From: Promethearchaeota archaeon
GTDB taxonomy: Archaea; Asgardarchaeota; Lokiarchaeia; Sigyniarchaeales; Promethearchaeaceae
Assembly (NCBI GenBank): GCA_016933055.1
Contig: JAFGBS010000028.1
Span: forward strand, 90,001 to 122,000
Direction: 5' to 3'
DNA: 32,000 nt
Below the pieces are notes generated by a model. That model saw nothing but the letters and a program-made list of their open reading frames with translations. It made no database searches and was not told the DNA's origin. This document shows, in pieces, positions 3,989 to 18,773 of the stretch. Numbering within the stretch: position 1 is the first letter of the stretch; every line of letters starts with the position of its first letter. Made by a program: the position numbers and the translations under genes.

Positions 3989-5512
3989 TTGGTGTATACA
4001 ATGAGTTCTTCCTCCCGAGAGTTAATTTTAAAAAATTCTATTATTTACGATGCTAAAAATCAAATTAATGGTGAAACAATAGATCTACTAATCAGAGATG
4101 GTAAAATCGTTGAATCCTTGAAAGATGAATCCTCAGCACAAGAAATCGATGGGAAAGGATACATCACCTTCCCAGGGTTTATTGATATGAGATGCCACTA
4201 TTATGCCCAAGAGACAATCTATCACCAATTACTTAATCAAAAACATAACACTCGCAATTGCATAGCAAGTGCGCAATTACTAGAGAAAAATGCATTGCAG
4301 CAAGGGTTTACTTTTCTCTGTGAAATGGATGTACCCCCTACCCAATCAAAAATCGCCTTACAAAATATGACTCTAGGACCGTTATTGGATCATCTATTAA
4401 TAATGGATTTTGGGTCCAATTGGGCTTTTATGAGTGATTTTGAAACAGAAAATCCGGTAGAAACAATTGCTTATACATTGTCAATGCTCCTAGGAATAGT
4501 TAAGGGAGGCGGTATTTCCATTACTTGTCCCTATCATCAGCAATATTGGAATTTAAAGCCGATTCTTCCCAATTCCTCAATTCCTATAATGAAAATCCTA
4601 CCACAAAAGCTTTATTCGTTATTCACTAAGGCCGCAAACTTACATAACATTTCTCCGTACTTTTTATCTCCTTATTTCGATGAAGATAATCCGATCACTT
4701 TACTTAGCATTCTAAAAGAATTGGGACAACAAGATTTTGTTCTATCTACAGTAAACCATTACTTCAAAAGTGAATGGAAAGAATTGGAAAAAATTTATTC
4801 GGCTCAAGAAAATCTCGTCTGCGAAGTTACTCCTTTCACTACTGATCATGTTAACCCGTTAATAACTCGTGATAGAAATTTTGCTTTAAGTGAAAGCAAG
4901 CATTCGGGAATCCCCATGATAGCCGTTGATGTAGAATTTGATACGGAGTATTATATAACGGGGCGAAAATTCGAAACAGACTCCCCTCTACAAATTGATT
5001 GGGTTAAATTAATTCAAAGTTTCAAAAAGAACTGTGGATTGGATCGAGTTATCTTATCCAGTAATGCTCCGTACAATATGTGCATTTCAGATTGGTCAAA
5101 GCATCTTGCAAGATTATTAACTCAATCCAATCATGAATTGGATCTATTTGATATTTCTAGAATTTTATCAACCAATCCGGCGCAGATCATAGGCTTAGAT
5201 AGCAGAAAAGGTCATTTAGGAGTCGGTGCTGATGCTGATATAGTATGTTTTCAAGGAAATCCTGAAAACATAAACGAAACGCTATTCAAAGATTCCGAAA
5301 TTGTTATGAAAAATGGCAATATAGTCAAAAAGAGAACCAATTTGATTACACTAGATAAACCACTTGGGAAAATATTCTGGACTGAGGGTAATTATGATCC
5401 TTTAAAAATGGATAAATTACGTCCTAAGAAAGAGAAATTCTATGATAAACGGTTTTCAATGTACTTGGAGGCATTAGAAAATCCTAAAATATCCATTATG
5501 GAAAAAATCTAA
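3989..5512 (+). CDS. Amidohydrolase-fold protein homologous to formylmethanofuran dehydrogenase subunit A (FwdA), metal ligands apparently lost
   Basis: LLIRDGKIVE, PGFID and NPAQIIGLDSRKGHLGVGADADIV mark the amidohydrolase fold. GFTFLCEMDVPP, FGSNWAFM, VDVEFDT and the C-terminal region track FwdA as I recall it. The HxH motif reads DMRCH. Confidence 0.75.
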   Translation: MVYTMSSSSRELILKNSIIYDAKNQINGETIDLLIRDGKIVESLKDESSAQEIDGKGYITFPGFIDMRCHYYAQETIYHQLLNQKHNTRNCIASAQLLEKNALQQGFTFLCEMDVPPTQSKIALQNMTLGPLLDHLLIMDFGSNWAFMSDFETENPVETIAYTLSMLLGIVKGGGISITCPYHQQYWNLKPILPNSSIPIMKILPQKLYSLFTKAANLHNISPYFLSPYFDEDNPITLLSILKELGQQDFVLSTVNHYFKSEWKELEKIYSAQENLVCEVTPFTTDHVNPLITRDRNFALSESKHSGIPMIAVDVEFDTEYYITGRKFETDSPLQIDWVKLIQSFKKNCGLDRVILSSNAPYNMCISDWSKHLARLLTQSNHELDLFDISRILSTNPAQIIGLDSRKGHLGVGADADIVCFQGNPENINETLFKDSEIVMKNGNIVKKRTNLITLDKPLGKIFWTEGNYDPLKMDKLRPKKEKFYDKRFSMYLEALENPKISIMEKI

Positions 5513-5618: not shown

Positions 5619-7949
5619 ATGGAAAAAATAGGTCTAGCAATTTGCCATTGTGGCTTAAATATAGCGGGAGTACTCGATATAAAGAGAATAAAGAATTTTT
5701 TTAAAAAAGACCCTAAAAATCTCTATGTGTTCGACGAGAATTATTTATGTTCCGATGCGGGATTAAAAGCGATAGATGATATAGTGGGGGAGCAAAAGAT
5801 AACTCGAGTAGTGATAGCAGCATGTTCTATTAAACTCCATGGAGATATGTTTCGTGAACATTTTGAAAAAATCGGCATTTCCCGAGACTTAGTTGCTTTT
5901 GTAAACATCCGAGAACAAAATTCATGGGTTCATACTAAAGAACCAGCTTTAGCCACACAAAAAGCTATTGAACAAATCCAAGCGAAAATTGAGTATGTAA
6001 AACTTCTAGAACCTCAAGAAAGGGTAAGAGTTCCCGTTACACAAGAAGCTTTAGTTATAGGGGGGGGTATAGCAGGTATACATGGTGCTCTTGCGATAGC
6101 AAATGCTGGATATCATGTCTATTTAGTGGAAAAAGATTCCACAATTGGGGGTCACATGCCTTTATTTGATAAAACTTTTCCCACTATGGATTGCTCAATT
6201 TGTATTCTAGGTCCGATAATGAACGAGGTAAAAGAACACCCTAACATTACATTAATGACTTACACTGAAGTAATTGATGTTTCTGGATACATAGGAAATT
6301 TTCAAGTGAAAATAAAGAAAAAAGCACGGTACGTGGATTTGGAAAAATGTGTAGGATGTTTTGACCTTTGTCGGGGAGTGTGCGATGTCGAATTACCTGG
6401 TCGTTTTTTTCCTATGAAAGCAATTGATGTGAAATTTCCGGGTGCAATTCCATTAGTACCCGTTATTAATATGGACTATTGCACTGGCTGTGGAGCATGC
6501 GAACTTGCGTGTGATAGAGAGGCTATAATATATGATGATAAAGATGCGATTGAGGATATTAAAGTCGGAGCAATCTTGGTTGCTACAGGTTTCAAGGATT
6601 TCGATCCAACTGGGCTTCGAGAGTATAAATATTCTCTGAATCCAAATATTATTACTGCATTGGAAATGGAGAGGATGTTAAATCCTGAAGGACCTACTCG
6701 GGGAAAAATATCTGTACCCTCAACCGGGCTACCCCCAAAAAAAGTCGGATTTATTCTCTGTGTCGGTTCTCGAAACAAAAATTTGAATAGAGAATACTGT
6801 TCTAATGTTTGTTGCATGTATTCCATTAAACAAGCAATTTTGATCAAAGAGCGAGTCCCGAATTGTGAAGTGTATGTGTTTTATAACGATATCCGCGCAA
6901 ACTTCAAAATGGGGGAGAACTTTTACAATCGGGCACGTGAAGAAAATCATATTCATTTTCAAAAAGGGACAGTATCTGATATTCAGTCTATTAACGGAGA
7001 GGAAGACGATGCACCTACAATAAAACTTTTTGCAGAAGATACTATGCAAGGTGTACGAATGGAAGATGAATTTGATCTTGTTGTACTTGCAACTGGGATG
7101 GATCCTCCTGATGATACTGACAAAATTGCTAATATGCTGAATATTTCAAAAGATCCTTACGGATTTCTCATGGCAAGTCATCTGAAAGTTCGACCATCGC
7201 AATCTTCTCTGCACGGGATTTATCTAGCTGGTACTATCCACGGACCTAAAGATATTCCTAGTAGTATTCTACAAGCAGAAAGTGCCGCGGTAAAAATACT
7301 TTCTATTTTGATCAAAAAAGAATTAGAAATTGCTGCGGTAAAAGTCCATTTGGATGAAGATAAATGTGACTTATGCCGATTATGTCTTGATGTATGTGAT
7401 TATCAAGCATTGTCCATAGAGAATAAGAAAATAGTGCTTAATTCTGCTAACTGTCTTGGATGTGGGGCATGCGCAGCAATGTGTCACACAAACGCATTGT
7501 GGATCCCTGGATTCAGCTCAGAACAGATTGAACGACAAATAGACTCATACCTAGCGAATAAGTCTCAGGCTCCCTTAATTCTTGCATTTCTGTGTAATTG
7601 GTGCGCGTATCCGGGAGCTGATCTAGCGGGTACAAATAAAATACAATACCCCACAAATATACGAGTGATACGAGTGAATTGTGCTGGGATGGTTAATCCC
7701 TCATGGGTAGTCAAAGCCTTATTGGAAGGTGCTGACGGGGTAATTGTTATCGGGTGTTACGAACAAGATTGCCATTTCACCTCAGGATTTACCAAAGCGA
7801 AAAATTGGCATGAATCTACACTCGCTATACTGGAGGAATTGAACATTGATACGAATCGGATTCGATTGGAGAATATTTCTGCGGGTGAGGGGAAAAAATT
7901 CGCTGATATAGTTTTCGAGTTTTCAAACTCATTGATAAAAAAGAAATAA
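5619..7949 (+). CDS. hdrA: Heterodisulfide reductase subunit A fused to C-terminal MvhD (hydrogenase delta, [2Fe-2S]) domain
   Basis: N-terminal ICHCGLNIAG...REQNSWVH, FAD motif VIGGGIAG, FPTMDCSIC, FILCVGSR/CSNVCC and four ferredoxin CxxC..CxxxC motifs. The C-terminal AFLCNWCAYPGADLAG...RVNCAG...GADGVIVIGC...DCHF is MvhD. Confidence 0.95.
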   Translation: MEKIGLAICHCGLNIAGVLDIKRIKNFFKKDPKNLYVFDENYLCSDAGLKAIDDIVGEQKITRVVIAACSIKLHGDMFREHFEKIGISRDLVAFVNIREQNSWVHTKEPALATQKAIEQIQAKIEYVKLLEPQERVRVPVTQEALVIGGGIAGIHGALAIANAGYHVYLVEKDSTIGGHMPLFDKTFPTMDCSICILGPIMNEVKEHPNITLMTYTEVIDVSGYIGNFQVKIKKKARYVDLEKCVGCFDLCRGVCDVELPGRFFPMKAIDVKFPGAIPLVPVINMDYCTGCGACELACDREAIIYDDKDAIEDIKVGAILVATGFKDFDPTGLREYKYSLNPNIITALEMERMLNPEGPTRGKISVPSTGLPPKKVGFILCVGSRNKNLNREYCSNVCCMYSIKQAILIKERVPNCEVYVFYNDIRANFKMGENFYNRAREENHIHFQKGTVSDIQSINGEEDDAPTIKLFAEDTMQGVRMEDEFDLVVLATGMDPPDDTDKIANMLNISKDPYGFLMASHLKVRPSQSSLHGIYLAGTIHGPKDIPSSILQAESAAVKILSILIKKELEIAAVKVHLDEDKCDLCRLCLDVCDYQALSIENKKIVLNSANCLGCGACAAMCHTNALWIPGFSSEQIERQIDSYLANKSQAPLILAFLCNWCAYPGADLAGTNKIQYPTNIRVIRVNCAGMVNPSWVVKALLEGADGVIVIGCYEQDCHFTSGFTKAKNWHESTLAILEELNIDTNRIRLENISAGEGKKFADIVFEFSNSLIKKK

Positions 7950-8102: not shown

Positions 8103-8450
8103 TTATTCCATTATTGACTTAATTTGCCGGCTAATCAATCCTAATTGATTTTTCGCGTCTTGACCCACAAAGCATATGATAGAATATTTTGATCCATAAG
8201 CAATTACTGCATATCCCTTACTTAAGGTGATAGTCAATTCTTTTGGACTCCCTTTGCTTATATTAGATCCCAATAGTGTTAAACGGGGAAGTAACTCAGA
8301 TGCTGCTTTCGCAATCTTGCTAGTATCATCATTTGCAATAGTTTGACCCGAGATAACATATCCTTTCGGATCAAATGCGACAATTCCCTCAACCTCAGCA
8401 ATTTCACTCATAATATTCGCTAATTTTGGTTCTATTTCCTCTTTCGACAT
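8103..8450 (-). CDS. Roadblock/LC7 (MglB/LAMTOR-like) domain protein
   Basis: 115 aa with helix-VEGIVAFDPKGYVI-helix-three strands-C-terminal helix (QLGLISRQIK). GAGGTAAG lies directly upstream of the ATG. Confidence 0.85.
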   Translation of the reverse strand: MSKEEIEPKLANIMSEIAEVEGIVAFDPKGYVISGQTIANDDTSKIAKAASELLPRLTLLGSNISKGSPKELTITLSKGYAVIAYGSKYSIICFVGQDAKNQLGLISRQIKSIME

Positions 8451-8608: not shown

Positions 8609-8905
8609 TTACTTCAAAACGATGAGATTAAGACCCTCAGTGTTCGCGATCATTACTTCTCCTTTTTGAGTTTCAAGTCTTACAAAAGCAAGCTCTCCTT
8701 CCTTCAAAGCATCGCAGATATTACGAGCTCTTCCGATCAATGAAGTTATATATGCAGCAGTTTTTTCTGTTGTTTCTGTATCTAAGTCACTCTGAATTGG
8801 TAAGCCCTCTTGATCACAAACAATTACTCCACGAACGCCTTCCATGGAGGAGAAGCGCTTAACAATAGCACGTATGCTTTTTCCATCAATCATCGCGATT
8901 TTCAC
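8609..8905 (-). CDS. Roadblock/LC7 protein resembling dynein light chain roadblock (DYNLRB); likely start ATG at 8893
   Basis: KRFSSMEGVRGVIVCDQEGLPIQS...ARN...LAFVRLETQKGEVMIA...LIV matches the DYNLRB-type pattern. It lacks the extra C-terminal helix. Confidence 0.88.
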   Translation of the reverse strand: MKIAMIDGKSIRAIVKRFSSMEGVRGVIVCDQEGLPIQSDLDTETTEKTAAYITSLIGRARNICDALKEGELAFVRLETQKGEVMIANTEGLNLIVLK

Positions 8906-9075
8906 TTCTAATGTTAGAATATGTATTTTGATAGGTTTGTATGTTAAAAAATTATTCCTTCCTATCCTTATCTTAAATATAGAGATCCATTAGTATCCTA
9001 AATTTATTGTCAAAACGACAAAATCTGAGTATGGTATCACTTTAGTATATCCCTCGCTCTAAGGTAATTTAGATC

Positions 9076-9297
9076 TTCTAGGGTCAACCCACATTCTGCA
9101 GAACTATGCCTCAAGTAGTGACTCTTATTCATCTAATCAACTTTTAAGTGACATTTCGTCAACTTAGATGACCAGACATCCACTTTACTTTTCCCTTTTT
9201 CACCTTATGGGACTTGTAGAGTGTTAGACCTTCCTATGCTGAATTAACCTTTTAGTTGTTCCATGAGAGATTTTTGGTGTAGTTCCTAGAACTTGAG
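9076..9297. ncRNA. Candidate structured non-coding RNA (unassigned)
   Basis: Sits in a 738-bp gap with no ORF in the supplied track and is less AT-rich than its flanks. It contains several short complementary segments and, on the minus strand, fragments resembling RNase P conserved regions. A canonical P4 helix could not be built. Confidence 0.25.
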
Positions 9298-9643
9298 ATT
9301 GTGAGCATAAAATTCACGATAGTTATCTTACAATTTACTTAATAGAGATTGAAAATAACGAAATCGCCAAAAACGAAAACATTGGCGCAAATTATGTTAA
9401 AAAATTTAAATAATTACTTTTCTTTTTTTTAAGTTCTTACAAGATTGTTCTCTTTTTCAATCTGCCCGTAGACTAATTTACCCCAACAAGGTTTCAATTT
9501 CGTTACAATCTAAGAATAAAATTAATGGAACATTCAGCTACATACTCCTACATCATATTTAGGCTTTTAGAAGAAATTTGAGTTATGATGATAAAGTATT
9601 TGTTTTTGAACCCTATGAATTAATATGAGGTATACATAAATTC

Positions 9644-12600
9644 ATGTCAGACGCAGCAGAATACTATCAACGGGGCTTAACATTTCTTTCTGAAAAACCT
9701 CCTAATCTTATTAAAGCTCTATCCTTAATACGTAAAGCTAAATTATTGTTCGATCAAAAAGGGAATGAGAGGGAATCTGAGGCAGCACAGGATAAAATCT
9801 ATTTTGTATACATTTCTTTAATCGAAAAAGAGTATGAACAGGCAAAAAATTTCTTGACGATAGGTTCTTTTGAAAAAGCTCTATCAAAAGGAGTGGATGC
9901 CTACTCTCATTTAGATAAATCCTCTCCTAAATATAGCCAAAAAACCTCAAAAAAAATTGAAAATTTAATAGAACAAATTGCAATTGAGCTTTTATATGAT
10001 ATAGAACGTAGTCAAGATAAGATTTCCATTGATGAATCTCTTAGCAAATTGCACTATGTAGAACGGGTCATCCTTGATGTTTTTTATTCTCATCTCAAAT
10101 CCTCCAGTGACAAGGTTGAAATTCCTGAAAATTTCATAAAAGAAATCCAAGATAAACGCAAAATCCAACGTGCATTCATTAATATTTACGAATCGCTAGG
10201 GAATCACTCAAAAGATTTAGCAAAAACGTATATACAAGAGGGAAATATCACTCAAGGAGCTATATCTCTTAATCTAGCGAAACAATTATATGAAACCACT
10301 GGTTCTACCCAGCGATTAGACGATCTTAAGCCTTTATATCAAAAAATCCATGAGGCTCAAGGTGACCTTGCATATACTAATGCCGAACAATTGATGCAAG
10401 AAAATCGACTGGAAAAGGCTCGAAATCAACTAAAAAAAGCTCGTGATTTCTATTCTATATCTCAAAATGATAAAAAGAAAAAAGCTGCTGAAGAGTTATA
10501 TCTTAATGTGTCGGTCGAATTGGGCGAAAATCTTCTCGAGGATGCTGAGAAAGCTTTAGAACTAAATGATATGAAATCTACGATTGACTATTTGAAAGAA
10601 GCGTATGATTTTTTTAGTAAAATCAATCATAAAAAACTAAAGCAGCAAACTGAACAGAAATTAAATAGAGTGTATTCAGTATTAGGAGATAGAGAATCTG
10701 AACTTGCAGAACAAGTTGATCCAAGCGATATAATCAATAAAAACCTCAGTAAATTAGATCTTGAGGAGTATAGCTTCCAAAGTGAGTTTTTTTTGACTTC
10801 TGAACTTATTTCTCAGAAATTACAGAGATTACATGGTGCTTCCTATTATTACCAAAAAGCGCATAATGAGATTCAACTTAAGAAAAACGAACGCAAAATT
10901 CATAGTTATACAGAAAAGATCGCTAACTTATACTTAAATCAAGGGAAAAGGGATTTTAAAAATAGAGAATACGAAAAAGCTCAAATTCATCTAAAAAAAA
11001 GCATCTTCTATTACCAGAATAACAACCAAAAAATTAATAGTATTCGGGGGATGCTCCAAAAAATCGAACCCAAAATTAATGCCAAAAAACTAGAAAAAAT
11101 TAAAAAATCTTTAATTCAGTATAATGAATTAATTTCCGAGCAATATATAGGAAATCCACCTACTTCTGGAGTGAATCTCCATGGGGATACCACTGATCAG
11201 CAATATCGATGCAAAAATTGCGGAAATTGGGTACAAGCATATTATTATGATTCCATTCAAGAGAGATGTTTAGAATGTCGTTCACGGATAATATGCGATG
11301 AATGTAGGAAAGAAATTGGACCGAATGAAATATATCAGCAATGTTTAGGATGTAAGGCTATTTTTTGTTTAGATTGCGCTGAACGAGTATTTGATTTCAT
11401 CCAAAAAAAATGTTTGAGCTGTCGAGTTGTCCAAATTTGTGATATTTGTCAAAAAGAAGCAAAACCAACTGAAAGTTTCAGTGAGTGTCCCCTCTGCCAC
11501 AAAATATGTTGTACTTCACACTTCGATTTTCAACAAGGTTTATGCAACGAATGTCGACAAATCATTAAATGTTCACAGTGTGGGGTTGAATTAAATAAAG
11601 AAGACGTATTTGTCTGTGACGTTTGTAAAAACGTTTTTTGCGCTAAACACTTCGATGTTGGGAGAAATACATGTATTCAAGATCGTAAAGAAGAAATCTG
11701 CGCAAAATGCGGAAAAATCTTGAAGAAAGAAGATTCAGCAAACAAATGTCCAAAATGTGGTTTTATGTACTGTACAAATCACTTCTCGGAGTTTCACGAA
11801 ATGTGTACGGTCTGCCTTCCAAAATTAGAATGTTCATTTTGTGGTATGGACTTATCCAAGGAAAATTTTTTCCAGTGTAACGATTGTAAAAAAGTGTTTT
11901 GTCGGGATCATTTCAATTCAGCTTTGGGAAGGTGTTTATCTTGCACAGAGAAGGTGAGCACAGTAAAAATAAATGCAATCGGAGTTCAAACAATCACACA
12001 AGACGCTACTCAGATGTATGATTTACAAGCCAGCACAATGCAGCCGATTATTGCAAAATTTAATCGTGGGGAGGTTCTCGAATCGGAAGAAATCGATTTT
12101 CTTTTGCGACATCAGATCAATTTACCCATAGATGAGGAAAAATATGTGAATATAGGTTCTACTCAGAACGTTATGGTACTAATTCGGCAACCTGACAATA
12201 AACCTTACGTTGTACTTGTTCCAGAAACCCCAATTGTAATTGATGTGAAATACTATGGGGATCTTTTCCGTAAGCTAATTCCATATCTTCCTGAAGTTCC
12301 ACTCACCATCGATGGAATGACGAGTATTGTGAACTTAATATTTTATGCCTCAAATAATCCCCGATGGGCTTTAATGTACGAAATATTACATCAAACTTTA
12401 TTGAAAACTGGAATAGAAGTGTTACATGTACTTGTCTTGGTGTTCAGGAAAGCGAATACAGAATTAATAAGTCAATCAATATCAGACTCTATCCTAGAAA
12501 AAAACTTTTCCGGTACAAACATAAAAGAAGCTCTCAAATTTATTCAAACTAATGATTCTGAAGATGAAGTGGGATTGTTTTCAAATAATGAAAGATTGGA

Positions 12601-12691
12601 CCAATTACTCAAGGTTTTTTATAATCTTCACCGGGGTAATGTACTACGTGCTGCAGAACTACTTGCTATCTATGAAATCGATCCGAAATAA
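9644..12691 (+). CDS. Large protein: TPR/alpha-SNAP-like helical repeats + five tandem 8-ligand Cys/His zinc fingers + unassigned C-terminal domain
   Basis: The N-terminal ~480 aa carry recurring A..L..A..(F/Y) helical pairs. Residues ~523-767 hold five units of CxxC-x11/12-CxxC-x4-Cxx(H/C)-x7/11-Cxx(C/D) plus one half unit. GAGGT lies upstream of the ATG. Confidence 0.9.
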   Translation: MSDAAEYYQRGLTFLSEKPPNLIKALSLIRKAKLLFDQKGNERESEAAQDKIYFVYISLIEKEYEQAKNFLTIGSFEKALSKGVDAYSHLDKSSPKYSQKTSKKIENLIEQIAIELLYDIERSQDKISIDESLSKLHYVERVILDVFYSHLKSSSDKVEIPENFIKEIQDKRKIQRAFINIYESLGNHSKDLAKTYIQEGNITQGAISLNLAKQLYETTGSTQRLDDLKPLYQKIHEAQGDLAYTNAEQLMQENRLEKARNQLKKARDFYSISQNDKKKKAAEELYLNVSVELGENLLEDAEKALELNDMKSTIDYLKEAYDFFSKINHKKLKQQTEQKLNRVYSVLGDRESELAEQVDPSDIINKNLSKLDLEEYSFQSEFFLTSELISQKLQRLHGASYYYQKAHNEIQLKKNERKIHSYTEKIANLYLNQGKRDFKNREYEKAQIHLKKSIFYYQNNNQKINSIRGMLQKIEPKINAKKLEKIKKSLIQYNELISEQYIGNPPTSGVNLHGDTTDQQYRCKNCGNWVQAYYYDSIQERCLECRSRIICDECRKEIGPNEIYQQCLGCKAIFCLDCAERVFDFIQKKCLSCRVVQICDICQKEAKPTESFSECPLCHKICCTSHFDFQQGLCNECRQIIKCSQCGVELNKEDVFVCDVCKNVFCAKHFDVGRNTCIQDRKEEICAKCGKILKKEDSANKCPKCGFMYCTNHFSEFHEMCTVCLPKLECSFCGMDLSKENFFQCNDCKKVFCRDHFNSALGRCLSCTEKVSTVKINAIGVQTITQDATQMYDLQASTMQPIIAKFNRGEVLESEEIDFLLRHQINLPIDEEKYVNIGSTQNVMVLIRQPDNKPYVVLVPETPIVIDVKYYGDLFRKLIPYLPEVPLTIDGMTSIVNLIFYASNNPRWALMYEILHQTLLKTGIEVLHVLVLVFRKANTELISQSISDSILEKNFSGTNIKEALKFIQTNDSEDEVGLFSNNERLDQLLKVFYNLHRGNVLRAAELLAIYEIDPK

Positions 12692-12774: not shown

Positions 12775-13467
12775 ATGTCAAATTATTGTGCAAAATGTGG
12801 AGATCCGTTAGAGCCGGGTCAGAAATTTTGTGAGAAATGTGGGGCTCCTGCAGAAGCTATGAACACACCTCAGACCGCCCAACCAGCAGCTTCTAGTGGT
12901 CTATTTGATCCCTCGAGACAGTATTATATTCTTCAGGAAAAATACTGGTCATGGGGCTCGGGATCGATAATGGATGAGCAAGGTCAAGAAATTGGAAAGA
13001 TGCATAGGAAGGTGTTTTCGATTCGACAGAAAATAGAATTATTGGAATTAGATGGGACCGTTAGTGCCACAATTCATAAAAAAATTGTTGCGATTCGACC
13101 CACCTATGATTTGAAAGATGGGCAGGAAAATGATCTTGCACGGTTAAAAAAGACCATCATAAATGTCATCCGACCGAAGCTTTTCTTAGAAGACCCTAAT
13201 GGGAATGTGCTTTATGAAGCAAGAGGGAAATTTATGGGGTGGGACTTCACAATTACAGATCCATCAACTGGGACTCTAGTTGGGACCGTTAGTAAAACGG
13301 ATAGATGGAGGGATGTATTCCTTGGTGGTGTATTTAATTTTAAGGACACATACGCTCTTAAAATCGAAGATCCTACTGTTGATCGACGACTTTTACTTGG
13401 ATTCGTGTTGAGCATTGATAATTCACTCCACGATCAGGGTAAAACTGGTGGATTCCGTTTCGGTTAA
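12775..13467 (+). CDS. Zinc-ribbon + LURP-one/scramblase (Tubby C-like) domain protein
   Basis: N-terminal CAKCG...FCEKCG ribbon and an Ala/Pro/Gln linker. Repeated beta units (YYILQEKYWSWG..IMDEQGQEIG, LFLEDPNG, WDFTITD, DTYALKI) end in a helix (DRRLLLGFVLSID), as is typical of LURP-one/scramblase. Confidence 0.82.
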   Translation: MSNYCAKCGDPLEPGQKFCEKCGAPAEAMNTPQTAQPAASSGLFDPSRQYYILQEKYWSWGSGSIMDEQGQEIGKMHRKVFSIRQKIELLELDGTVSATIHKKIVAIRPTYDLKDGQENDLARLKKTIINVIRPKLFLEDPNGNVLYEARGKFMGWDFTITDPSTGTLVGTVSKTDRWRDVFLGGVFNFKDTYALKIEDPTVDRRLLLGFVLSIDNSLHDQGKTGGFRFG

Positions 13468-13560: not shown

Positions 13561-14688
13561 TTGAGAAAATTTCAAATACAACCCTCATTAACTACGTGTA
13601 TGCACGATCCGCTTTCTGAGTATCTAATTGAGAGATTTGACCTAAAATCAGAAGACCACAAATTATACTGCGATGTGGTAAAAACTGCTTTTCTACATCA
13701 TAAACATTCTCAAGGGGGAACTATTCTATTTGATGAAGAAACCTTTAACATCATGTTTGGGTCTCCGTATCAAGACAAAGATTTATTCATACGTGCAATT
13801 CATAAAGAAACCGGTGATTTGGTTGGCTTTGTAGGGGCTATCCCCCGTCATTTGGTGTATCAAGGAAAAGAATACAAATTTGGTGTTCCTGCGTGGATCT
13901 CTGTTCACTATAAACACCAAAAAAAGGGCCTTGCACGTGCGATGGGTATCAAGTTACTAGAATATGGTGCCAATACAGCAAGGTATGAAGGTGGATTTGT
14001 AGAATTTGATTCAGAAGATCATGGTTTAGAGGCATTTGATGCTGTATTTCGAGGATACGATTATGAAATCAATGATATTTTATCTATGGACAAGTTCGTG
14101 GTTCGTGCATTTGATGTTAAAAAACTGAGTTCCGTAATAAAATTACAGAAAATCGAAAAATTTGGATTGAGATTGCTTCAAAAAGTGCAAAAAGTAAACA
14201 ATCCACTAATACGTAAATCTAAACCTGAAGATCATGAGCGCCTTTATGAGTTACTTCAAGATCATATCGAACGAAATGAGTTGTCCGTTATTCGAGATAA
14301 GGAAGATTTTTTGTGGTATTTGCAACAACCTGGTGTGAACTGCGTAGTCCATGAAGATGAATCAGGTGCGGTAGATGGATTTATAATTGCTTGGAAATTT
14401 CAATTAGCTGGATTTGGAAACGCTATAAACTTTGGCTGGCTGGATTGCGTACATATCCATCGCCTATCCAGTAAAGATGCTTCAGATTTATGTAAATATT
14501 TATGTGTTGTCTCTAAAGAATTAGGATGGGAGGGTTTGCAGACTCCATACATTCCATATTTTGATCCCAAACCTTTCAAAAAAGCGAAATTCATATTTTA
14601 CCCCAAAAAACTAATAATTAGTAGTTTTAAATTCAGACCAACACCAATTCCAAAAAACGTAAAATCATTTTATTTTGATTGGAGATAA
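13561..14688 (+). CDS. Tandem-GNAT acyltransferase, N-myristoyltransferase (NMT)-like; start TTG 13561 or ATG 13600
   Basis: LVGFVGAIP, ISVHYKHQKKGLARAM, RAFDVKKL, IRKSKPEDHERLYELL, VVHEDESGAVDGF, SKELGWE and FKKAKF are colinear with NMT N- and C-domain segments as I recall them. Confidence 0.75.
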   Translation: MRKFQIQPSLTTCMHDPLSEYLIERFDLKSEDHKLYCDVVKTAFLHHKHSQGGTILFDEETFNIMFGSPYQDKDLFIRAIHKETGDLVGFVGAIPRHLVYQGKEYKFGVPAWISVHYKHQKKGLARAMGIKLLEYGANTARYEGGFVEFDSEDHGLEAFDAVFRGYDYEINDILSMDKFVVRAFDVKKLSSVIKLQKIEKFGLRLLQKVQKVNNPLIRKSKPEDHERLYELLQDHIERNELSVIRDKEDFLWYLQQPGVNCVVHEDESGAVDGFIIAWKFQLAGFGNAINFGWLDCVHIHRLSSKDASDLCKYLCVVSKELGWEGLQTPYIPYFDPKPFKKAKFIFYPKKLIISSFKFRPTPIPKNVKSFYFDWR

Positions 14689-14729: not shown

Positions 14730-17700
14730 TTAGTCCTCTAATCCCTCTTCTTTTAGGAGATCATCCAGATCTGCAGTTTCTTTTTCCTTTTCGGGAGTTA
14801 TAGCTTCCGATTCTTCCACTACATCCTCTGGTTTTTGTTTTTGTAATTTAGCTACTTCCACGTAACGTCCTCGTCTCGGTCGTTTTTCTTCTTTTTTCTC
14901 TTTTTCAGGTACTTTTTGTAGCTTTTTATAAGTATTCCAACTGAAGTATGTACTGCCCAGAATTAATCCGATCAATCCGATGAAAAATAATGTTTTAAAA
15001 AATCCATCCAAATTGTCAAGAAAAGATGAAGTTAGAACGGTTAATTCAAATGAAGAAGAATTTTGCACCACTTCATTAGAATCATGATTCTTACACGTCA
15101 CTTGAACTTGGATAATTCCTTCGTTTTCTTGATAAGAAGCTGGAATGGTGACATAATATTCAATGAAAAAGAACTCATAAGGATTCAATTGTTTTTCAGA
15201 AGAATAACTGATATCACCTATTCTAAATGTTGTGCCGGGAAAAGCAAAATCAACGGCAAAATCTTTCAAGGTGGAGTTTCCAATGTTGGTAATTTTAAAT
15301 ATTAAGGTATTTTCTTGTTTTTCTTTCAAAAACACTTGATCCGTGGAATTCACAATCTCAATCCGAATTGAATCGCTATAAGTTATCATTGCAAAATCCA
15401 AGGTAGTAGAGGTGCCAAAGATCGTTGTGTTTCCCATCCATGTCAGTTTTATTTTCAAATTGGTAGATTTAGAAACAATATTTGAATCAAAAGTACCGGT
15501 AAAAAAGCCGTTATCCTCTGTAACTAATTCTTTTTCATCAGTTTGGTTGAAAGTTATCCATTCAGACCCATTGAATACCTCAACCGAAATAGTTTGATTT
15601 TTTATATTTTGACTAAATTCATCCATTAAATACCCTTGAAGTTTAAAATCGCTCCCCCATATTAAGTCTACTGTGGAAACATCTGAGAATATAGCTATAG
15701 GTTTGGAATTGAAAGTATCATATTCTGATAGGGAACAAGTAACATAATAACTATCTGAGATTTGTAATAGGTATGTGGCTGTGGAATGCACTAACTCTTC
15801 TACACGGTTAATTTCAGCTGAAAAAATCTTTCCGATAGGTCCTGGGCGATGATGAATCATACTTTTCATCATTATTTTTCCTTCGAATTCTGTTTCTGAT
15901 TTTTCGATAAATGGGAATACAATATCTACAATCCGGTCATTAAGTTTTGCTCCATTTATTTCAGTTTGAATTTTTAATACAAACGGGTTTAAGCGAATCG
16001 GGGCATTTATTCCCTTATAATCTGTTGGAACAGTGAATTCTAATTCGATAGTATTGGATTCAGTTCCACTCCCTACCATTCCTAGTTTAAAACTTGTACT
16101 CTGTTCCATTACAATCCAATCATAATTTGTGGATTGCACAAACTGAGCATTTATCATTAAATCATTATCCCAATATAAGTTAAAACTCTCAAAGGTAAGA
16201 TTTACCTTGATAATTTCACCAGGATTAAATAATGATTCATTTACGAGTATATGAGTTAGATTTATGTCAAATCCATAATCGAGATATTCCCATCCCAATG
16301 TTTCGTTGATATGATAGTTTCCATCTCCAGAGGATCCTGTCGTATCATTAATTGCAAAAACTGATACATTATATGTAGATGCACTTGTTAAATTCCTCTG
16401 TATTGAAGAAAGAATCACATCCACACGCTTATTTAAATCCTCAGCGATATTCATTATATCAACGCCATATTCCATAATGAATATGGGTTGAATTTGGTAT
16501 CCTAATTCATTCCCTCCATTCCATTTGAAAACGAGGGAATATTTTCCCATTTGTGTTATCTCAGTAGTGTTCAAAATATTTTCAAAATCATATTGATAAT
16601 GGGTGAGTAAAACTGGTTTTCCATTAATTAAGATAGCTTCAGTATCGTCAGGAGTAGTATCCACTAACTCATTCGGGATTAAAAGTGCATTATCGGGATC
16701 ATAAAGATTGACAGTACTATCACCCGTAAAAATTTCAGAACTATTTTTAGTATAATTTAAAATTCCCATGCTTACTGAAATGTTATCTCCTTGCATAAAT
16801 CCATAAGTTGGCCAATAGTGGTCCTCATAATGAAGATAAGATTTCATCTCATGTACATAATTTGGACTATCTGCATAAAGAGAATATATACCATTCTCTG
16901 TTTCAAGAATCCAATATTCCACGAAATTCCCCTCAGTCGATTCTTCATAATCATCAAGTATTGAATTTCGATTTTCATCTAATAATTCTGTTACCGACCA
17001 ATCTACTGGAACAACAAAACTGAAATTTTTTAATGTCCAGCCCGTATAGATGGCAGAATTTAGGGTATAATTAAGCTCCCATGCGGGATTATCACCAAAT
17101 TCAACAGAAAATTTTGTTATTGTAGACTCAATATTATACACAACAGCTGTATAATTCACATTAAATACGAGATTTAGAGTTAATGATTTGTTGAACTCTA
17201 TTGGAATGGTAATATTATTCGCATCATCCCGTATCTCGGTTTCAAATATATGATTCCATTTTGCGAGCCCCCATCGATATCCCGAAGTTTGTGCATATAT
17301 TCCAGTAGTTAAAGAGTAGGATTTCACTGCTCTGTCGTCAATTTTCATATCTATTTCTTCAGGTAACCATGGACGTGTTAGGTTGATTGCAAAGGGGGCA
17401 GCATCTACTTGCCCTCCTCCCACTAATACTTTACTCCAAGTTCCCGGATTCCCATTACTGGAGCGTAAAAATAAATGGTCCACCCGTTGATCGGGATCCT
17501 GGTTCGTGGCATCTCCATCAGAATCCGAATATGGAATGGTCACTACGGAATAGATAGAACTTGTATTAGCACTTAAAACGACAAAGTAATTACTGACATT
17601 CAGTTCGATAGGAGAATGATCCGCATTGAATGGAATATAAGCGTATTCATCACCCTCATAGTTATCAATTATTCTACTATTCATAAGTAGTTCTGGTTCT

Positions 17701-18773
17701 AAATTCAATTGGGTAGTGGATACAACCGTGGAACGAGTCCCAGTTTGATTCGCGCGATACAATTTTACAGCGAGTTCCGAATTGGGTAAAGTAGGAGTTA
17801 AAGTGCGTATCCATGCGAAAAATCCCGTAACATTCACAATTCCTTGTACATCGAATTCCATGGCAACATAATTTGTAGTAGAAATCGCAGTTTCCGAAGC
17901 AATTAACGCTTCCACTTTTAAATCATTATATAGCACATAAAAAGAATTGAAACTATTCGATAATACTATAGTAATGTTCACTTGGTTATTTGCATTGAGA
18001 TATGATAATCGGGTATTGGTTAGAGTAATTTCTTCAATTAAATCAGGATCATTCCAAGTCTGAGTCTTCATTAAATCCAATTGACCAGTTTGAATATTTG
18101 TGAGATAGATCGTAGCTGTTACTGCTCTCGATATAATTCGATCCATAATCAATCGAAATCCTATCGTCCTTGCCTTAACAAAACCAGGCACATTCGTGAA
18201 ATTTGCGGAGTAGGTTATATTTACCATATTATCTGGAGGGGAAAATTCACTATTTAATCCTAAATAGGAATTTGGATTCGTGTCAACTAATCCCGTGAAA
18301 CCGGTGCTTCCAATTGTGGAAGTTCCATCGGTAATTATTAAACTATCGGTACTAGTTGACTCCGATGTAGTCCAACCTGGATTTTGACGGGAATTCTCAT
18401 CTGAACGAGGATAATCTAACACTGAATCGGTTTCAAATGTATGAACAGTTTCATAATCGCTCAGAATAGTAAAATTCATGGAGCTGGAATATACAGCAGA
18501 AGGGGATGTTGGTGTGGAAATATTAAAATCATCGACTTGATTTGATTCTGAATCAGTTTTTTGAACATATGATCTTACTGTTTGTGGGTCCCCAGAACCT
18601 TCCCACGGAACATCTAAATCCGTTGAGGACTGTACATTGTATAAATCTGGAGTTATAGGATCTTTGGCTATAGAAATAAAGCTAACTCCAATAAAAATAG
18701 TAAGTATAATAGCAGAGAATAATAACATTCCTTTTACTTGATTTTTCCGATAATTGTTCATAAAGCGTCTCAT
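14730..18773 (-). CDS. Large membrane-anchored surface glycoprotein (Ig/CARDB-like beta domains)
   Basis: N-terminal hydrophobic helix and a Thr/Ser/Asn-rich beta ectodomain with about 30 N-x-S/T sequons (counted by eye). A CARDB-like FKITNIGNSTL segment precedes a C-terminal TM helix (FFKTLFFIGLIGLILGSTYF) and a ~65-aa charged tail. Confidence 0.88.
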   Translation of the reverse strand: MRRFMNNYRKNQVKGMLLFSAIILTIFIGVSFISIAKDPITPDLYNVQSSTDLDVPWEGSGDPQTVRSYVQKTDSESNQVDDFNISTPTSPSAVYSSSMNFTILSDYETVHTFETDSVLDYPRSDENSRQNPGWTTSESTSTDSLIITDGTSTIGSTGFTGLVDTNPNSYLGLNSEFSPPDNMVNITYSANFTNVPGFVKARTIGFRLIMDRIISRAVTATIYLTNIQTGQLDLMKTQTWNDPDLIEEITLTNTRLSYLNANNQVNITIVLSNSFNSFYVLYNDLKVEALIASETAISTTNYVAMEFDVQGIVNVTGFFAWIRTLTPTLPNSELAVKLYRANQTGTRSTVVSTTQLNLEPELLMNSRIIDNYEGDEYAYIPFNADHSPIELNVSNYFVVLSANTSSIYSVVTIPYSDSDGDATNQDPDQRVDHLFLRSSNGNPGTWSKVLVGGGQVDAAPFAINLTRPWLPEEIDMKIDDRAVKSYSLTTGIYAQTSGYRWGLAKWNHIFETEIRDDANNITIPIEFNKSLTLNLVFNVNYTAVVYNIESTITKFSVEFGDNPAWELNYTLNSAIYTGWTLKNFSFVVPVDWSVTELLDENRNSILDDYEESTEGNFVEYWILETENGIYSLYADSPNYVHEMKSYLHYEDHYWPTYGFMQGDNISVSMGILNYTKNSSEIFTGDSTVNLYDPDNALLIPNELVDTTPDDTEAILINGKPVLLTHYQYDFENILNTTEITQMGKYSLVFKWNGGNELGYQIQPIFIMEYGVDIMNIAEDLNKRVDVILSSIQRNLTSASTYNVSVFAINDTTGSSGDGNYHINETLGWEYLDYGFDINLTHILVNESLFNPGEIIKVNLTFESFNLYWDNDLMINAQFVQSTNYDWIVMEQSTSFKLGMVGSGTESNTIELEFTVPTDYKGINAPIRLNPFVLKIQTEINGAKLNDRIVDIVFPFIEKSETEFEGKIMMKSMIHHRPGPIGKIFSAEINRVEELVHSTATYLLQISDSYYVTCSLSEYDTFNSKPIAIFSDVSTVDLIWGSDFKLQGYLMDEFSQNIKNQTISVEVFNGSEWITFNQTDEKELVTEDNGFFTGTFDSNIVSKSTNLKIKLTWMGNTTIFGTSTTLDFAMITYSDSIRIEIVNSTDQVFLKEKQENTLIFKITNIGNSTLKDFAVDFAFPGTTFRIGDISYSSEKQLNPYEFFFIEYYVTIPASYQENEGIIQVQVTCKNHDSNEVVQNSSSFELTVLTSSFLDNLDGFFKTLFFIGLIGLILGSTYFSWNTYKKLQKVPEKEKKEEKRPRRGRYVEVAKLQKQKPEDVVEESEAITPEKEKETADLDDLLKEEGLED

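Follow-up and report, generated by a model that had tools for sequence, protein, structure and literature searches.

What does a tandem array of zinc fingers do in an archaeal protein? The question is raised by a gene of a Promethearchaeota archaeon (Lokiarchaeia, Promethearchaeaceae). The gene lies in a stretch of 32,000 nucleotides, here called the window (GenBank assembly GCA_016933055.1, contig JAFGBS010000028.1, positions 90,001 to 122,000), and coordinates below are those of the window. The open reading frame at 9644-12691 on the forward strand codes for P0001, a protein of 1015 amino acid residues that consists of an N-terminal helical region, a finger array and a C-terminal domain. FYVE and FYVE-related fingers are usually seen as modules of eukaryotic membrane traffic. 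On balance it is probable that P0001 is a multivalent scaffold on which other proteins dock, and that its fingers form an array of the FYVE-like, cross-brace type.

The Finger Array

The array occupies positions 11210-11944, which correspond exactly to residues C523 to C767 of P0001. A regular-expression search divides it into one half unit and five full units of 38-43 residues. The full units follow the signature C-x2-C-x11/12-C-x2-C-x4-C-x2-[C/H]-x7/11-C-x2-[C/D], in which the x11 spacer before the last pair belongs to unit 1. Five units of about 43 residues and a half unit with such spacings had been described in an initial annotation made from the sequence alone; the search reproduces them, with exact coordinates. 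All 40 cysteines of the protein and all 17 of its CxxC motifs fall within residues 518-772, and the remaining 760 residues contain none. The ligand columns are kept in 11 homologues, down to 40% identity. The finger pattern is thus confirmed as real and well beyond chance.

The half unit (11210-11278, forward strand, like all units) reads C523-x2-C526-x15-C542-x2-C545. It is nearly invariant across homologues and is predicted to bind one zinc ion. Unit 1 (residues 551-593; 11294-11422) has only cysteine ligands, with spacers x12/x4/x11 and a helix of seven residues after pair 3. It is 55-60% identical to its orthologous units; ligand 5 is an aspartate in the homologues P0007 and P0008. Histidine serves as the sixth ligand in units 2-5 and is not a ligand in unit 1.

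Unit 2 (residues 599-637; 11438-11554) has the ligand order C4-C-H-C2 and is an accessory unit that is missing from the homologue P0010. Unit 3 (residues 643-680; 11570-11683) ends in an aspartate ligand in P0001, where orthologues have histidine or cysteine. Unit 4 (residues 686-724; 11699-11815) is 49-60% identical to its orthologous units and, together with unit 1, is the best conserved of the full units. Unit 5 (residues 730-767; 11831-11944) is followed by a short helix and is absent from P0007 and P0010. The linkers that join the units of the array are five residues long without exception.

A profile built from 54 units, when run against the organism's own genome, matches the five full units at E values of 7e-12 to 6e-16. 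It finds no further locus in that genome below an E value of 2e-3.

Predicted Fold and Zinc Topology

The fold of the fingers was predicted with AlphaFold2 for residues 516-772, from an input alignment of 12 homologues. The model has a mean predicted local distance difference score (pLDDT) of 89.9 and a predicted template modelling score (pTM) of 0.52, with no segment below 50 in pLDDT. Each modelled unit runs as strand, knuckle, strand, loop, strand, knuckle and strand, with a short helix from pair 3 and a hairpin leading into pair 4. The modelled order of elements is that of a treble clef into which a second zinc site is interleaved.

The model was then aligned with VIA wide to 48,161 representative solved chains, with no prefilter; Z scores below 8 in this tool may reflect merely a common arrangement. 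For unit 5 (model positions 211-257, residues 726-772), all of the top 14 structural matches are FYVE or FYVE-related fingers, at Z 6.5-4.5 and a root-mean-square deviation (rmsd) of 1.4-2.2 Å over 44-47 residues. At least ten are FYVE entries at Z 6.5-5.0, within the same ranges of rmsd and length. The list is headed by RIM2-alpha (2cjs, Z 6.5, 2.1 Å over 46 residues) and RUFY1 (2yw8, Z 6.5, 1.6 Å over 47), which are followed by Slp4 (5x6t, Z 6.4), EEA1 (1joc, Z 6.3, 1.6 Å over 46), endofin (3t7l, Z 6.0, 1.5 Å), ZFYVE19 (Z 5.9) and Hrs (Z 5.8). Next come melanophilin (2zet), CARP2 and ZFYVE27 at Z 5.5 each, a second Slp4 entry (2csz, Z 5.3), ALFY (Z 5.0), the RH domain of Rubicon (Z 4.7) and rabphilin (1zbd, Z 4.5).

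Other classes score lower: PHD fingers reach at most 3.9, the AN1 finger of Cuz1 3.5 and B-boxes 3.1. The FYVE group leads all of them by 1-2.5 Z units, and its matches cover the whole unit. The internal units, which have no trailing helix, align best to C1 domains (PKC-delta, RasGRP1, MRCK1, MgcRacGAP and Vav1), at Z 3.1-3.5. These comparisons, in which the FYVE matches concern unit 5, support a FYVE-like fold. They also agree with the initial annotation in so far as it took the units for fingers of FYVE/PHD type: according to the model they would be two-zinc fingers of the FYVE/PHD/C1 class of binuclear treble clefs. A closer likeness to Rab-effector fingers had been proposed for unit 1. Such a likeness was seen in unit 5 (to RIM, Slp4, melanophilin and rabphilin) and not in unit 1, which matches C1 domains best.

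Other structural searches of the array returned little. Foldseek with the whole array against the PDB gave nothing at an E value of 1e-3 or better, and only weak rows of tandem LIM, PZP and RBR proteins with an rmsd above 10 Å. In the ESM Atlas, the shape search of the array gave template modelling (TM) scores of at most 0.45 and the feature search gave at most 0.85. The Atlas rows for the array include Thermoproteota HerA/DUF87 clusters that were automatically named "FYVE-type domain-containing protein"; such rows are leads only.

How would zinc be bound in such a unit? All five units have eight ligands in four pairs, which are predicted to bind two zinc ions in cross-brace order. One reason for favouring the cross-brace is that the modelled unit 5 superposes on cross-braced FYVE fingers over all four ligand pairs, at 1.4-2.2 Å.

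The half unit provides a second argument. It aligns to pairs 2-4 of the full units, with the fifth ligand, a cysteine, replaced by glutamine and the sixth, a histidine, by tyrosine. The unit hidden Markov model covers it from position 12 to 41 of 42, at an E value of 2.4e-4, and its spacing from ligand 4 to ligand 7 is x15, as in units 2-5. The half unit therefore keeps pairs 2 and 4 and has lost pairs 1 and 3. Such a remnant would form a full site of four ligands only if its two pairs bind the same metal, as they do in a cross-brace. The initial annotation had named cross-braced fingers and independent ribbons as the two arrangements to be told apart, and the half unit and the modelled superposition of unit 5 both favour the former. 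RING-like binuclear treble clefs have a second site that is similar to a zinc ribbon of the rubredoxin type (PMC4506424), which fits the sub-threshold matches of the half unit to profiles of the zinc-ribbon type.

Relation to Known Finger Families

Curated profiles do not place the array in any one family. P0001, the array and every single unit stay below the thresholds of all Pfam and NCBIfam models. When the 54 units were scanned singly against Pfam, all matches were sub-threshold: zf-AN1 in 38 of the 54 (best E 1.2e-4), the ANCHR-like B-box in 30, zf-RING_5 in 20, IBR and FYVE in 18 each (best FYVE E 9.4e-4), zf-HIT in 14 and C1_2 (DC1) in 13. The RING, IBR and B-box profiles all stay below their cut-offs (RING_5 2e-4, IBR 1.1e-4, ANCHR-like B-box 1.4e-3), and in the structural comparison a B-box reaches Z 3.1. 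The units may share ancestry with these families within the binuclear treble-clef class. Two Pfam models of Rab-effector fingers, FYVE_2 (PF02318) and RIM2a_ZnF (PF22601), match marginally at E 0.022 and 0.072, and FYVE itself has no match to the whole P0001 array at E values up to 10.

Against PDB sequences, the unit profile finds the Vps27 FYVE finger (4.7e-4), that of EEA1 (2.3e-3) and the RING of BRE1 (3.6e-3). Its matches to C2H2 fingers were rejected, since they amount to a local motif of about 14 residues around one CxxC. Among the language-model neighbours of the array, which serve as leads only, are archaeal clusters of the B-box and Prok-RING_1 types (0.79-0.85). Taken together, the sequence signals put the units in the binuclear treble-clef class without resolving the family.

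The strongest FYVE signal by sequence comes from a homologue. Unit 6 of P0008, which has no counterpart in P0001, carries K-H-H-C before pair 2 and scores 22.6 bits against Pfam FYVE (E 1.1e-4; cut-off 27.8 bits). Its top PDB sequence matches are nearly all FYVE fingers. This signal is suggestive, not significant. Another homologue, P0012, bears the precomputed Pfam accession PF26037.1.

FYVE fingers (PF01363) share with the units the eight ligands in four pairs and the spacing C-x2-C-x11/12-C-x2-C-x4-C-x2-C/H...C-x2-C. The unit 5 model superposes on them at 1.5-1.6 Å over 46-47 residues, with Z 5.8-6.5 (EEA1 1joc, RUFY1 2yw8, endofin 3t7l, Hrs 1dvp and Vps27 1vfy are the FYVE fingers compared), and Vps27 also has the C-x2-H form of pair 3. 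However, the units have no PI3P (phosphatidylinositol 3-phosphate) pocket motifs, their spacer between pairs 3 and 4 is x7 compared with about x16 in FYVE, and they stay below the Pfam gathering threshold of 27.8 bits. FYVE fingers also occur in one or two copies, whereas the archaeal array has five and a half in tandem.

The fingers of Rab effectors (RIM2-alpha 2cjs, Slp4 5x6t, melanophilin 2zet and rabphilin-3A 1zbd) share the fold, at Z 6.5, 6.4, 5.5 and 4.5 respectively. PI3P motifs are absent there too, and their roles are in protein-protein complexes rather than in lipid sensing. They differ in that each is single and sits between two long helices that contact Rab (SHD1 and SHD2), while the units of the array, in the model, follow one another after linkers of five residues with no such helices beside them.

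An AN1 finger (PF01428; Cuz1 5ij4) resembles the units in its first six ligands, C-x2-C-x(9-12)-C-x2-C-x4-C-x2-H, and in an aromatic residue before ligand 5. Its end is different: AN1 closes with H-x-C after x5, and the array units close with C-x2-C/D/H after x7 or x11. The Pfam alignments stop at position 30 of 40, the best one scores 18.8 bits against a cut-off of 27.9, and the structural Z is 3.5. Membership of the PHD family (PF00628) was considered and rejected, as the C4-H-C3 order with histidine as fifth ligand is not found in the units and the best Z is 3.9.

C1/DC1 domains (PKC-delta C1 1ptr, MgcRacGAP C1 4b6d) are the best match of units 1, 2 and 4 (Z 3.3-3.5) and share an interleaved two-zinc arrangement with spacers x4, x2 and x7, but they have an N-terminal histidine and a single final cysteine. 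Tandem LIM domains (LMO2 2xjy) are similar in their head-to-tail packing and short fixed linkers, but their zinc sites are sequential. None of the C1/DC1 and LIM matches to the array is strong.

Prokaryotes are known to have binuclear treble clefs (PMC4506424), and RING-like forms have been described there (Burroughs et al. 2011, as cited in PMC4506424). Prok-RING_1/2 and the prokaryotic B-box belong to this structural class. They show no significant sequence match to the units, have another ligand signature and other spacers, and differ from an array that is embedded between two domains.

The initial annotation had recognized no named family with this architecture, and none in Pfam or NCBIfam covers it. 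Literature searches on Asgard archaea with FYVE and related terms returned no description of such a protein. New features are the finger signature, the row of 3-6 units flanked by a helical region and an orphan domain, and the presence of this row in the Asgard family of the window.

Origin of the Array

Where did the array come from? Homologues were sought with a word index of 5.8 billion proteins and with exhaustive HMMER searches of 1.84 billion cluster representatives. Six full-length relatives have 67-70% identity and about six have about 40%. All are "hypothetical proteins", and they come only from metagenome-assembled genomes (MAGs) of Promethearchaeota/Lokiarchaeota or from metagenomic contigs. 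A scan of one genome per prokaryotic species added two more loci, in the isolates AMARA_1 and Bin_342. The finger-bearing form occurs in the window's genus (two species) and in one other genus of the family, where it has six units in an open frame of 1111 residues. It was not found in the 10 other searched genomes of the family, three of which are single-contig. The finger-bearing family is therefore tiny: two genera among the searched genomes and a few metagenomic contigs. In a search of sequencing runs, the DNA was found in a sediment metagenome, which is probably its source, and 38% of its words in a hot-spring metagenome; no RNA run was listed.

The other genera have a homologue of about 800 residues with the same N- and C-terminal parts and no fingers. 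For instance, an 802-residue protein from a complete 4.36-Mb genome of the same family aligns to P0001 over residues 93-488 and 800-1012 only, and its linker of about 110 residues is unrelated to the array. The C-terminal domain is single-copy in the window's genome; the finger protein has therefore taken the position that the fingerless form has elsewhere. Judged from these alignments, the array is a lineage-specific insertion into the linker between the two domains, an origin that the initial annotation had not considered.

Whole units have been gained or lost. In the copy-number survey that had been suggested with the initial annotation, finger-bearing homologues have from three to six units: P0010 has three (it lacks units 2 and 5), P0007 four, the window's clade five, and P0008, P0009 and P0012 six. 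The half unit is present in every finger-bearing homologue examined. It forms the always-present core together with units 1, 3 and 4. Within this core, conservation is highest in the half unit and in units 1 and 4.

The units are also orthologous by position. A given unit of P0001 is 37-60% identical to the unit at the same place in homologues of about 40% overall identity, compared with 23-44% to the other units of P0001 itself. By this comparison each position of the array has kept its own character. No tandem repeat is visible in the array at the DNA level. Because of this, and because the units are orthologous by position, the unit duplications are taken to be old.

The same type of finger is also found outside the family. 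It occurs singly in other members of the order, for instance in a 348-residue protein from a sister family (genome G030, L017:991-2037, reverse strand), which has N-terminal transmembrane helices, one all-cysteine unit with the same spacers x11/x4/x7 and a TIR_2 domain (3.8e-11). It occurs as a pair in P0020 and P0024, proteins of about 390 residues from metagenomic contigs that consist of a zinc ribbon, two units and a C-terminal domain resembling E2/UBC (UQ_con 1e-4, E2-ntca and Prok-E2, all below cut-off). These two are the nearest relatives of units 4-5 outside the family, at E values of about 1e-6 to 2e-4. A small stand-alone array is found in P0026, whose cluster includes a protein from a Nanoarchaeota MAG. 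Since the unit occurs in such varied contexts, the module is mobile, and the long array is specific to the family.

Domains Flanking the Array

The N-terminal region (residues 1-515; 9644-11188) is helical and has no cysteine. A profile search against the PDB matches consensus tetratricopeptide repeat (TPR) proteins along a stretch of about 30 residues (E 1e-4). The Pfam models behave similarly: TPR_12 or TPR_2, among the TPR/SNAP models that include PF13424 and PF14938, match 5-6 of 13 homologues below threshold and do not match P0001. SNAP/TPR clusters appear for this region only as language-model neighbours (0.87-0.89), and the ESM Atlas feature search of the N-terminal part gave at most 0.90. 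The TPR/SNAP solenoid proposed in the initial annotation is thus not established, with TPR matches that stay sub-threshold and SNAP seen through language-model neighbours only; "TPR-like" is used here in this limited sense. Phylum-wide matches (f9) to residues 181-346 at about 21% identity were taken as generic helical-repeat similarity and set aside.

The C-terminal domain (residues 790-1015; 12011-12688), which the initial annotation did not mention, is mostly helical with one beta-hairpin. Its model is of high confidence (pLDDT 92.5, pTM 0.89), and it is the best-conserved part among the distant, fingerless homologues of about 800 residues. It has no known fold match: the best Foldseek row against the PDB has an E value of 0.18, the best VIA wide match has Z 4.8 over 41 residues, the ESM Atlas shape search gave TM scores of at most 0.31 and the Atlas feature search no usable match. 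The domain, which the whole family would share, may have a new fold, although a lack of matches is no proof of one.

A Probable Docking Scaffold and Its Alternatives

In the reading that is preferred here, the array would consist of one single-zinc half finger and five binuclear fingers that bind 11 zinc ions in all. In each full unit, according to the model, one zinc would be bound by pairs 1 and 3 and the second by pairs 2 and 4. The linkers of five residues would hold the fingers at a fixed spacing. The older Asgard protein had a TPR-like helical region followed, after a linker, by an orphan C-terminal domain. The array was inserted into this linker, and a scaffold of two domains would thereby have become multivalent.

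The fingers themselves would be protein-docking modules rather than PI3P sensors. None of the three motifs of the FYVE phosphoinositide pocket (WxxD, R(R/K)HHCR and RVC) is present in residues 518-772, so that the motif search upholds the initial annotation on this point. The residues that precede pair 2 in the units are acidic or hydrophobic. The array as a whole has 36 lysines and arginines and 35 aspartates and glutamates (net charge about +1), and its basic residues are not clustered. Docking is preferred to PI3P sensing because the pocket is missing and the array is nearly neutral. Moreover, the conserved, position-specific sequence of the units suggests a distinct binding surface for each of them.

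Several observations weigh against this reading. No curated profile reaches its threshold, AN1 is the commonest sub-threshold match, and RING_5, IBR and B-box matches are of similar strength. The FYVE match was obtained for unit 5 alone, and even its best Z of 6.5 is under the safe level of the tool. The zinc topology depends on an AlphaFold2 model made from 12 sequences. The FYVE resemblance may reflect merely the shared scaffold of binuclear treble clefs. Finally, a divergent arrangement of genes, which is the link to the neighbouring Roadblock pair described below, is weak evidence for shared function.

The best surviving alternative, although unlikely, is that the units are RING- or E3-like modules of a ubiquitin-type conjugation system, to which they would bring an E2 or a ubiquitin-like protein. 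Ubiquitin systems have taken up binuclear treble clefs on repeated occasions (PMC4506424). Besides zf-RING_5 (2e-4) and IBR (1.1e-4), the sub-threshold matches include zf-RING_2, Prok-RING_1/2, zf-UBP and AN1, and the RING of BRE1 appears at 3.6e-3 in the profile search of the PDB. P0020 and P0024 even join two such units to an E2/UBC-like domain, so that in other prokaryotes this finger may be tied to ubiquitin-like conjugation. For P0001 the structural comparison weighs against it, since solved RING and IBR domains are not among the top matches and FYVE fingers score clearly higher. The RING, IBR and E2 matches all lie below curated thresholds, and no E1, E2 or ubiquitin-like gene is found among the open reading frames of the window that were scanned against Pfam.

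Slightly less likely still is that the array binds a membrane or a lipid other than PI3P and tethers the scaffold to the archaeal membrane by avidity. FYVE and C1 domains, its best structural neighbours, are lipid-binding modules, and weak lipid binding would profit from multivalency. The genes next to the finger gene encode a scramblase-like protein and an acyltransferase resembling N-myristoyltransferase, and a single unit of this type stands beside transmembrane helices in the TIR protein of the sister family. Yet WxxD, R(R/K)HHCR and RVC are missing, and the array, at a net charge of about +1, contains no cluster of basic residues. The two neighbouring genes are not found beside the homologue of 40% identity or the fingerless one. 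Lipid binding is also absent from many FYVE-related fingers, among them those of rabphilin, Slp and RIM.

It is quite improbable that the zinc sites are independent and sequential, in the manner of LIM domains or zinc ribbons, with pairs 1 and 2 forming one site and pairs 3 and 4 the other. The best Foldseek rows, although weak, are indeed tandem LIM proteins (LMO2 and PINCH-1, probability 0.92-0.94 at E about 2e-3), sub-threshold matches to zinc-ribbon and double-zinc-ribbon profiles are common, and a spacer of x11/12 between pairs 1 and 2 permits a rubredoxin-like pair of knuckles. But these LIM alignments have an rmsd above 10 Å and TM scores below 0.3, against the 1.4-2.2 Å at which the whole of unit 5 fits cross-braced FYVE. 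The half unit, moreover, retains pairs 2 and 4, not pairs 1 and 2 or 3 and 4.

The least probable alternative is that the array binds DNA or RNA. In its favour are the tandem arrangement as such and the profile matches to C2H2 arrays in the PDB through a motif at pair 2. Those matches, however, span some 14 residues at a single CxxC and show no more than a likeness in composition and motif. The array is also neutral (36 K+R against 35 D+E), and its structural neighbours are protein- or lipid-binding domains.

The docking scaffold thus remains the preferred reading, and it can be taken one step further. The units might be true archaeal relatives of the eukaryotic FYVE/Rab-effector finger, more than fellow members of a generic treble-clef class, and P0001 a multivalent platform for joint action with small GTPases and the adjacent Roadblock/LC7 proteins; this extension is a long shot. 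If true, it would provide a prokaryotic forerunner of the scaffolds in trafficking that combine a solenoid with zinc fingers, in a family that includes cultured Asgard archaea. A FYVE-fold finger that lacks the pocket, is repeated five times and lies beside Roadblock genes would offer a handle on the roles of such fingers before PI3P signalling. Likewise, a single protein family with no fingers or with three to six of them is a natural experiment on adding valency to a scaffold.

Genomic Neighbourhood

Two genes of the Roadblock/LC7 family lie upstream of the finger gene and are transcribed divergently from it. Gene A (8103-8450, reverse strand) matches Robl_LC7 at 1.7e-7, and has orthologues in the same place at the loci L012 and L013. 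Gene B (8609-8905, reverse strand) matches Robl_LC7 at 1e-16 and LAMTOR5 with 40.4 bits against a cut-off of 27. It is 99%, 87% and 57% identical to its orthologues beside the homologous finger-protein genes and is far more conserved than the finger gene. Since the orthologues start with MIDG, its true start is probably an ATG that lies four codons after the listed GTG.

Further upstream, on the forward strand, are a gene of the amidohydrolase family resembling FwdA (3989-5512) and a gene for a fusion of HdrA and MvhD (5619-7949; FlpD, 4Fe-4S and FAD). The HdrA/MvhD gene precedes the Roadblock pair at L012 and L013 too. The order HdrA/MvhD, Roadblock, Roadblock and finger gene is kept in AMARA_1, where the finger protein has 69% identity, and in Bin_342, where it has 40%, so that this synteny extends over three lineages. 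Because the divergent pairing is so consistent, the scaffold and the Roadblock/LC7 proteins, which are of a GTPase-regulator type, probably act in the same process. When a complex of the C-terminal domain and both Roadblock proteins was predicted, the score was 0.00, which has no bearing either way.

The divergent intergenic region (8906-9643) is 738 bp long in the window, compared with about 225-254 bp at L012 and L013. It contains no Rfam match and no convincing small open reading frame, and the Rfam search was empty for the whole window.

Downstream of the finger gene, after 83 bp, follows a gene on the same strand (12775-13467) for a protein of 230 residues with an N-terminal zinc ribbon and a LURP-one-related (LOR)/scramblase-like, that is tubby-like, domain. 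Next is a gene for a GNAT protein (13561-14688, forward strand), whose match to the N-terminal domain of N-myristoyltransferase stays below threshold. Neither is found beside the Bin_342 homologue or the fingerless homologue.

The last neighbour is a gene on the reverse strand (14730-18773) for a protein of 1347 residues. It has no Pfam match and carries a hydrophobic stretch near the C-terminus, followed by a tail rich in lysine and glutamate; on these features it is probably a membrane-anchored surface protein. An orthologue (27% identity over the full length) is encoded, together with a Roadblock gene, near the fingerless homologue in the complete genome of the same family.

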